Source: a virus (taxonomy: Duplodnaviria; Heunggongvirae; Uroviricota; Caudoviricetes). Taken from it: DNA of 36,521 nucleotides. The notes beneath the pieces were generated by a model. It made no database searches. It was not told the DNA's origin and saw only the letters and a program-made list of their open reading frames with translations. The position numbers and the translations under genes were made by a program. Positions 22,198 through 22,451 of the stretch are shown piece by piece; positions within the stretch are counted from its first letter, which is position 1; every line of letters begins with the position of its first letter. The stretch covers positions 1 through 36,521 of the IMG/VR virus record IMGVR_UViG_2778261065_000031, one strand, 5' to 3'.

Positions 22198-22404
22198 TCA
22201 ACTCACAAAACGCCACGCCATTTTTGCAACAGCGACAGGCGCAACACCGATAATCACCCACATGAGAGTGCTACCGAAAAGCACACCCACCATGTCTTTA
22301 CCTTCACCTACCAACCGGATAAAACTGCTGGCAATCACAATGAACGTCACCACCATCCACGACGCACCGAGAAGCCTCAATGCAGAGAAAATTAACTCAA
22401 CCAC
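22198..22404 (-). CDS. Small hydrophobic protein (68 aa, two predicted transmembrane segments), GTG start
   Basis: GTG preceded by GGGGGAGAG; hydrophobic segments WMVVTFIVIASSFI and LMWVIIGVAPVAVA. Confidence 0.4.
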   Translation of the reverse strand: MVELIFSALRLLGASWMVVTFIVIASSFIRLVGEGKDMVGVLFGSTLMWVIIGVAPVAVAKMAWRFVS

Positions 22405-22420
22405 GATTTACTCTCCCCCA

Positions 22421-22451
22421 AATAAAAAGGCCTGCGATTACCAGCAGGCCT
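22421..22451 (-). terminator. Intrinsic terminator between helicase gene and nin region (tR2-like position)
   Basis: Perfect 8-bp inverted repeat AGGCCTGC/GCAGGCCT with 8-nt loop, followed on the minus strand by UUUUUAUUU. Confidence 0.6.

Follow-up and report, generated by a model that had tools for sequence, protein, structure and literature searches.

What is encoded directly behind the terminator that separates the replication genes of a lambdoid prophage from its nin genes, and when and to what end would the product be made? This question is raised by a locus in a 36,521-nucleotide phage DNA (Caudoviricetes; IMG/VR record IMGVR_UViG_2778261065_000031), which was analysed over its whole length and is hereafter called the window. 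At this locus, every gene lies on the minus strand. Specifically, an O-like replication gene (23906-24805) is followed by a gene for a DnaB-type replicative helicase that ends the replication module (22480-23931; PF03796, 3e-60; PF00772, 3.5e-31), by the 27-codon gene ninA (22397-22480), by a 68-aa ORF (22198-22404), by an ORF for a 125-aa acidic protein of unknown function (21803-22180; phrog_343, 8.7e-33) and by ninB, the first classical nin gene (21400-21846; PF05772, 1.3e-48). A phage Dam N6-adenine methyltransferase gene (20876-21430, minus strand; PF05869), ninF, roi/ant, ybcO, rusA and Q come past ninB, and cII, cro, cI and the N antiterminator gene (26675-27019, plus strand; PF25694 N_peptide, 4.7e-31) lie on the other side of the replication genes. 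The lysis cassette (16710-17927) contains a lambda-type S holin gene (PF05106, 2.4e-30) adjoining Rz. The N- and Q-type antitermination genes, the lambda-type S holin/Rz pair and the gene order identify the window as a lambdoid prophage, one that is P22/HK620-like; the site of interest is the point in its early-right operon at which the replication module gives way to the nin region. A preliminary description of this DNA had placed the site between the helicase and nin genes, which holds, the site being flanked by a DnaB-type helicase gene on its upstream side and by ninB on its downstream side; however, that description had overlooked ninA and the 125-aa ORF. Note that the 125-aa ORF resembles Sf6 gene 48 and overlaps ninB by 44 nt, and that the Dam methylase ORF, directly 3' of ninB, as listed overlaps the 3' end of ninB. 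In addition, a boxA-like sequence, CGCTCTTT, is found just past the cro stop codon (25377-25404, minus strand) with a short hairpin (GGAC-ATTC-GTCC) about 8 nt beyond it, and the two together are a possible candidate for nutR.

The terminator (22420-22451, minus strand) consists of a hairpin (22428-22451) and a U-tract. Reading along the minus strand, the stem arms AGGCCTGC (22451-22444) and GCAGGCCT (22435-22428) enclose the loop TGGTAATC, forming an 8-bp stem with six G-C pairs and an 8-nt loop, and the U-tract TTTTATTT (22427-22420), i.e., UUUUAUUU, follows. When folded alone, the hairpin reached -15.7 kcal/mol (z = -3.96), and only one of 200 shuffled sequences folded equally well. A scan of 10 kb, which gave 20 terminator-like sites against 11.6 +/- 3.3 in shuffled sequences, placed it as one of the two strongest sites. 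From AGGCCTGC through TTTTTATTTGGGGGAGAG, the sequence was identical base for base to those of lambda (in the ren-ninB interval), P22 and HK620. The same hairpin is annotated as "tR2" in HK620, as "terminator ... similar to phage lambda" in P22 and as "rho-independent terminator" in mEp235, and a terminator is also annotated in HK75; all of these phages share the identical 32 nt, the same position between the replication and nin genes and the same embedding in ninA. Given the sequence identity with lambda, P22 and HK620 and these annotations, the hairpin can be identified by its sequence as the lambda tR2 intrinsic terminator itself, so that the perfect 8-bp stem terminator of the preliminary description is confirmed and is more than the "tR2-equivalent" it was called there. 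The surroundings differ from those in lambda, where tR2 follows ren and precedes ninB, whereas here it comes after a DnaB-type helicase gene and before the 68-aa gene.

The 32-nt terminator sequence was unchanged in 125 of the 139 distinct contexts collected from related loci. Among these contexts, about five stem variants stay paired by means of G-U and two lose a base pair; with so little variation in the stem, no covariation support could be obtained for the hairpin. Rfam gave nothing in the window at gathering thresholds, its local matches being at chance level only. Standard templates for in-vitro transcription employ the tR2 sequence as a terminator, and lambda tR2 terminated up to ~90% of transcripts in an in vivo reporter assay (PMC4824070). 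We also noticed a tR2 variant with an inverted loop, AGGCCTGC-GATTACCT-GCAGGCCT, at two loci (L113, 2948; L179, 2951), representing a single event; its stem is retained and the LVI of NinA is changed to RLP.

The whole tR2 hairpin is enclosed by ninA, whose translation is MTIYITELVTGLLVIAGLFIWGRVNRG. Its ATG shares one base with the TGA stop of the helicase gene (22482-22480; TGATG), while at its 3' end the stop codon and the GTG of the 68-aa ORF overlap (GTGGTTGA). The frame matched phrog_5907 (1.1e-18) and is named ninA in HK620, P22, SPN9CC and HK630. As here, NinA of P22, HK620 and lambda is a hydrophobic ORF of 26-27 aa that carries tR2 and overlaps its neighbours at start and stop. The C-terminus is RVNRG in the window and HK620 and RGKT in P22, and by eye we read RGKS in lambda; the last four residues differ because a mosaic junction lies just past the Shine-Dalgarno sequence. 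The frame was intact in 225 of 240 loci and began with ATG or GTG in every intact copy. Codon 8 was represented by five synonymous Leu codons among the related loci, and the codons of the stem were less variable than codons 2-10, which fits an RNA-structure constraint added to the coding constraint. In lambda, the NinA initiation site was shown to be active in vivo, and NinA translation reduced the efficiency of tR2 by only ~10% (PMC4824070). The hairpin encodes GLLVIAGL within NinA, and PGAP leaves ninA unannotated at the identical locus of E. coli O157:H7 strain 611.

On the upstream side, genes of six unrelated families, namely two types of helicase, Ren-like genes and three others, end exactly at the ninA start, with Ren-like genes found 5' of ninA in 37 related loci. 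The invariant ninA/tR2 patch seems to act as a linker at which mosaic modules recombine, with upstream genes of at least six kinds joined through it to downstream genes of several kinds. Of 238 loci compared on the downstream side, 155 have phrog_343 next to the 68-aa gene, after a gap of 17 nt, and 44 have ninB. In the Salmonella proteins P0121, P0123, P0125 and P0128, the ninA frame runs on into that of the small membrane protein, giving fusion products of 93-94 aa; at least four distinct indels in the T-tract/G-run past the hairpin are responsible, and P0125 occurs on 47 contigs. Such fusions may be genuine and recurrent, or they may reflect homopolymer sequencing errors. AlphaFold modelled one natural NinA::ORF fusion as three helices, with the NinA part at low confidence (pLDDT ~60, pTM 0.49) and uninformative on packing.

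Both tR2 and ninA are textbook elements, so nothing new was learned from them here, and we turn to the 68-aa protein, which is an already annotated and widespread hypothetical protein. Its ORF (minus strand) begins with GTG, 6 nt behind the Shine-Dalgarno sequence GGGGGAGAG (22411-22419, minus strand), and upstream of the GTG the frame is open for two codons only. Residues 1-68 of the protein align with positions 1-68 of the profile for PHROG 1165, a family of unknown function, at 6e-35, so that the match is full-length, and the sequence is 100% identical to RefSeq WP_047089745.1, a "hypothetical protein" of E. coli O157:H7 strain 611. Its 186 near-relative protein clusters are almost without exception 68 aa long and are called "hypothetical" throughout, and the same-family records HK022_58, Stx2-86 orf70 and SPN9CC_0027 are likewise labelled "hypothetical protein". 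Three subtypes were distinguished: that of the window, that of HK620/H-19B (53-56% identity) and that of Salmonella P22-like phages (44% identity), which has an ATG at the position of the GTG. Across the 243 related loci the start codon was GTG in 226 and ATG in 17. The hydrophobic GTG-start protein proposed earlier was thus borne out, both by the full-length PHROG 1165 match and by a start codon conserved in 243 of 243 loci.

Pooled pairwise dN/dS of the 68-aa frame was 0.45, calculated from pairwise comparisons that are not independent, against 0.83-1.02 for other frames of the same strand and 0.64-1.22 for the opposite strand; this value indicates only moderate constraint. We considered coding on the opposite strand (ORFs of 99 and 75 aa) and rejected it, as these frames had no family match and their dN/dS was 0.64-1.22 versus 0.45. 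A 52-aa form starting at an internal ATG (22356), annotated in mEp235_046 and HK630_052, was also rejected. The codon concerned is ATT in 51 of 91 distinct sequences and in most subtypes, and the comparative evidence favours the 68-aa form over the 52-aa form. On this evidence, the 68-aa ORF is a genuine, selectively maintained gene.

We then asked how far the family extends. Only 26 matches, none of them with a known function, came from an HMM search that exhaustively covered 1.84 billion representative proteins. The distant relatives, from Erwinia, Serratia, Pantoea and Izhakiella, have 63-66 aa and 23-37% identity, and retain both hydrophobic helices, the turn and W16, W49, G53, P56 and W64, which are invariant or near-invariant. 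In Erwinia and Serratia prophages, the relative is again the gene that comes first past, and directly abuts, the replication genes, which are lambda-P-like or else DnaC-like plus NinX. No terminator was found 5' of the gene in these Erwinia and Serratia prophages, and a terminator-like hairpin in Erwinia is situated one gene beyond the relative. Since the distant relatives lack a preceding terminator, the layout of terminator and then gene is not a conserved design of the family; its conserved feature is the slot beside the replication genes and not the pairing with tR2. The family is small, limited to Enterobacterales and always located as the first gene past the phage replication genes. The Erwinia tracheiphila prophage that carries a distant relative (L245) also has a gene for a Hok/Gef-family toxin at 6508-6657, just 3' of the Q gene.

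Some lambdoid phages do without the gene. In lambda and P22 the 68-aa gene is absent and the Shine-Dalgarno sequence GGGGGAGAG serves ninB directly, the mosaic junction relative to these phages falling right after GGGGGAGAG. Furthermore, in the Stx1 phage H-19B (L087, 1495-1701) and seven related contigs (L234-L240), i.e., at eight loci, the small membrane gene has an in-frame TGA at codon 15, suggesting that it is probably inactivated in the H-19B lineage. The absence from lambda and P22 and the nonsense codon in the H-19B lineage show it to be a dispensable accessory gene, and the gene is an optional insertion between tR2 and ninB.

The protein encoded by this optional gene is predicted to be a two-helix transmembrane hairpin. 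Its hydropathy profile has two 19-residue peaks over the usual transmembrane threshold, with Kyte-Doolittle values of 2.13 (residues 11-29) and 2.16 (residues 41-59), and AlphaFold2, run with a 23-sequence alignment, gave a helix of residues 2-33, a four-residue turn and a helix of residues 38-67 at a pLDDT of 89. Two transmembrane helices had been anticipated in the preliminary description, and the hydropathy peaks and the modelled hairpin both support this. The sequence can accordingly be divided into a first transmembrane helix (about residues 11-29), the turn GEGKD, a second transmembrane helix (about residues 38-60) and the basic tail KMAWRFVS; its GRAVY is 1.4, and G40, G44 and G53 are small-residue packing positions. 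The basic residues are R10, R30 and K36 in the loop, and K61 and R65, that is, three K/R on the N- and C-terminal tails and two in the loop. The positive-inside bias is thus weak, leaving the orientation of the hairpin uncertain, and an orientation with both termini inside is a guess.

When would such a protein be made? A consensus scan, which weak promoters could escape, detected no sigma-70-like promoter site on the minus strand between tR2 and the 68-aa ORF or near 22400-23000. Because the gene lacks a nearby promoter-like site, starts 24 nt past tR2 and overlaps the ninA stop with its start codon, its expression from a resident prophage seems unlikely. A dependence on N-mediated read-through, as suggested earlier for this gene, is plausible and is inferred from the N gene of the window, the lack of a local promoter site and the efficiency of lambda tR2. 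In a lysogen the gene would be silent. After induction, transcripts from pR would mostly be halted at tR2 until N-modified RNA polymerase reads through it, and ribosomes ending ninA translation may re-initiate at the overlapping GTG, so that the two genes would be translationally coupled. In this way, ninA and tR2 would gate the output of the 68-aa protein via N, and the protein would be a delayed-early product inserted into the inner membrane in lytic growth. Taken as a whole, this account, in which tR2 lies within ninA and is followed by an optional gene for a membrane hairpin that is an N-dependent delayed-early product with an accessory membrane role, is in our judgement probably correct.

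What the protein does in the membrane is a harder question, and its proposed roles in host killing or exclusion are still speculation. Scans of the 68-aa protein, ninA and the distant relatives against Pfam, NCBIfam and PADLOC gave no meaningful match; for the 68-aa protein and two distant relatives, the PADLOC defence profiles gave zero families at E <= 1. A profile search of PDB sequences with the 68-aa family yielded nothing, and Foldseek comparison of the AlphaFold model with BFVD and PDB returned generic helical hairpins only, all at E > 0.6. A literature search by peptide, PHROG number and locus tags found no mention of the protein. Among known systems, T4 Imm, which is made early in lytic infection, and HK97 gp15 are, like the 68-aa protein, small, membrane-embedded, non-essential accessory proteins; however, no sequence or fold relationship between them and the 68-aa protein was detectable. 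The same accessory slot, at the replication/nin junction, is filled in lambda by Ren, a protein that gives protection against Rex. On the other hand, Ren is a soluble protein, its gene lies upstream of tR2 and its sequence is unrelated to that of the 68-aa protein. With these comparisons in mind, the role that we favour, though tentatively and as a possibility rather than an expectation, is that of a non-essential accessory membrane protein of the lytic phase, which may bind or perturb a membrane component, e.g., in superinfection exclusion or in countering a membrane-based host defence. A more general and somewhat more doubtful proposal is that PHROG 1165 and its Erwinia, Serratia and Pantoea relatives (63-68 aa) form a new family of lytic-phase membrane effectors, which would be made right after the replication proteins, gated by N and aimed at a specific inner-membrane component. 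If so, they might bar superinfecting phages or neutralise a membrane-acting abortive-infection system.

The main rival to an accessory membrane role is a toxic one, in which the 68-aa protein would be a membrane-damaging toxin or host-killing factor that depolarises or permeabilises the inner membrane early in lytic growth. The protein is small and very hydrophobic (GRAVY 1.4), has two predicted transmembrane helices with G40, G44 and G53 and is preceded by a strong Shine-Dalgarno sequence, and the position of its gene behind a strong terminator, in an operon that is repressed, would prevent a toxic product from being made in lysogens. However, Pfam and NCBIfam did not relate the protein to Hok/Gef or to other families of toxins, Rfam revealed no antisense RNA or antitoxin feature, and E. 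coli genomes carry up to five matches of the segment, which is without toxin-control elements; we therefore regard a toxin as rather unlikely. Still less probable, and unlikely by any reckoning, is a superinfection-exclusion or lysogenic-conversion protein that is expressed from the prophage and blocks incoming phage DNA, like HK97 gp15 or P22 SieA. Injection blocking is typically the work of small inner-membrane proteins and the gene is an optional mosaic insertion, as would suit such a protein, but the consensus scan found no promoter-like site of its own, and the gene is located 24 nt past a terminator of ~90% efficiency in the repressed pR operon, with its start overlapping the ninA stop and without the promoter-gene-terminator layout typical of morons.

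The comparative data also bear on whether the ORF has any function at all. Its absence from lambda and P22, the nonsense mutation in eight H-19B-type loci, the merely moderate constraint (dN/dS 0.45) and the flanking tR2/ninA patch, an obvious recombination linker, would all suit a frame that hitch-hikes through recombination of its flanks or a translated spacer carrying ribosomes from ninA onward. Such a reading is nevertheless very unlikely given that homologues with 23-37% identity in several genera keep the length, the helices, the turn and the five residues, that a start codon is retained at every one of the 243 loci and that other frames show no such constraint. The holin-like function envisaged in the preliminary description fared worst. 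Class II holins have two transmembrane helices and ~70 residues, and in size and two-helix architecture the 68-aa protein does resemble the S21-type pinholins; one distant member of the family also gave a very weak match to Phage_holin_3_6 (E = 1.2), the best of any family member. In contrast to the S21-type holins, the 68-aa protein belongs to another operon with another timing, being encoded outside the lysis cassette and transcribed from pR instead of the late promoter, shares no sequence match with them and is without their charged C-terminal tail (KMAWRFVS comprises eight residues, two of them basic) and without a dual-start motif. No significant match to a holin family was found, the 68-aa protein itself having no Pfam match, and the phage possesses its own canonical S holin (PF05106, 2.4e-30) beside Rz. 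A lysis protein is therefore unlikely, and the specific proposal of a holin, pinholin or antiholin-like lysis-timing protein is extremely so. The accessory membrane role stays our preferred reading. The 68-aa protein is one among many uncharacterised small membrane proteins of temperate phages, and its characterisation could define a new accessory function.

Finally, we surveyed the occurrence of the locus in bacterial genomes. The segment comprising ninA, tR2 and the ORF was present over at least 80% of its length in 530 of 5426 complete E. coli genomes (~10%), and some match was found in 1972 of the 5426. There were 2877 matching places in these genomes altogether, with up to five per genome, and homologues of the 68-aa protein are encoded by many Stx2a-converting phages. 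Plasmids, possibly phage-plasmids or carriers of integrated prophage fragments, account for 20 of the 2877 places. In the species-representative genome set, the sole match was in a 10-kb contig labelled "MAG: Bacillota bacterium" (L084, JAEZIN010000021.1), where a copy with 75% identity occurs together with the ninA/tR2 sequence; this contig is probably a mis-binned enterobacterial prophage.
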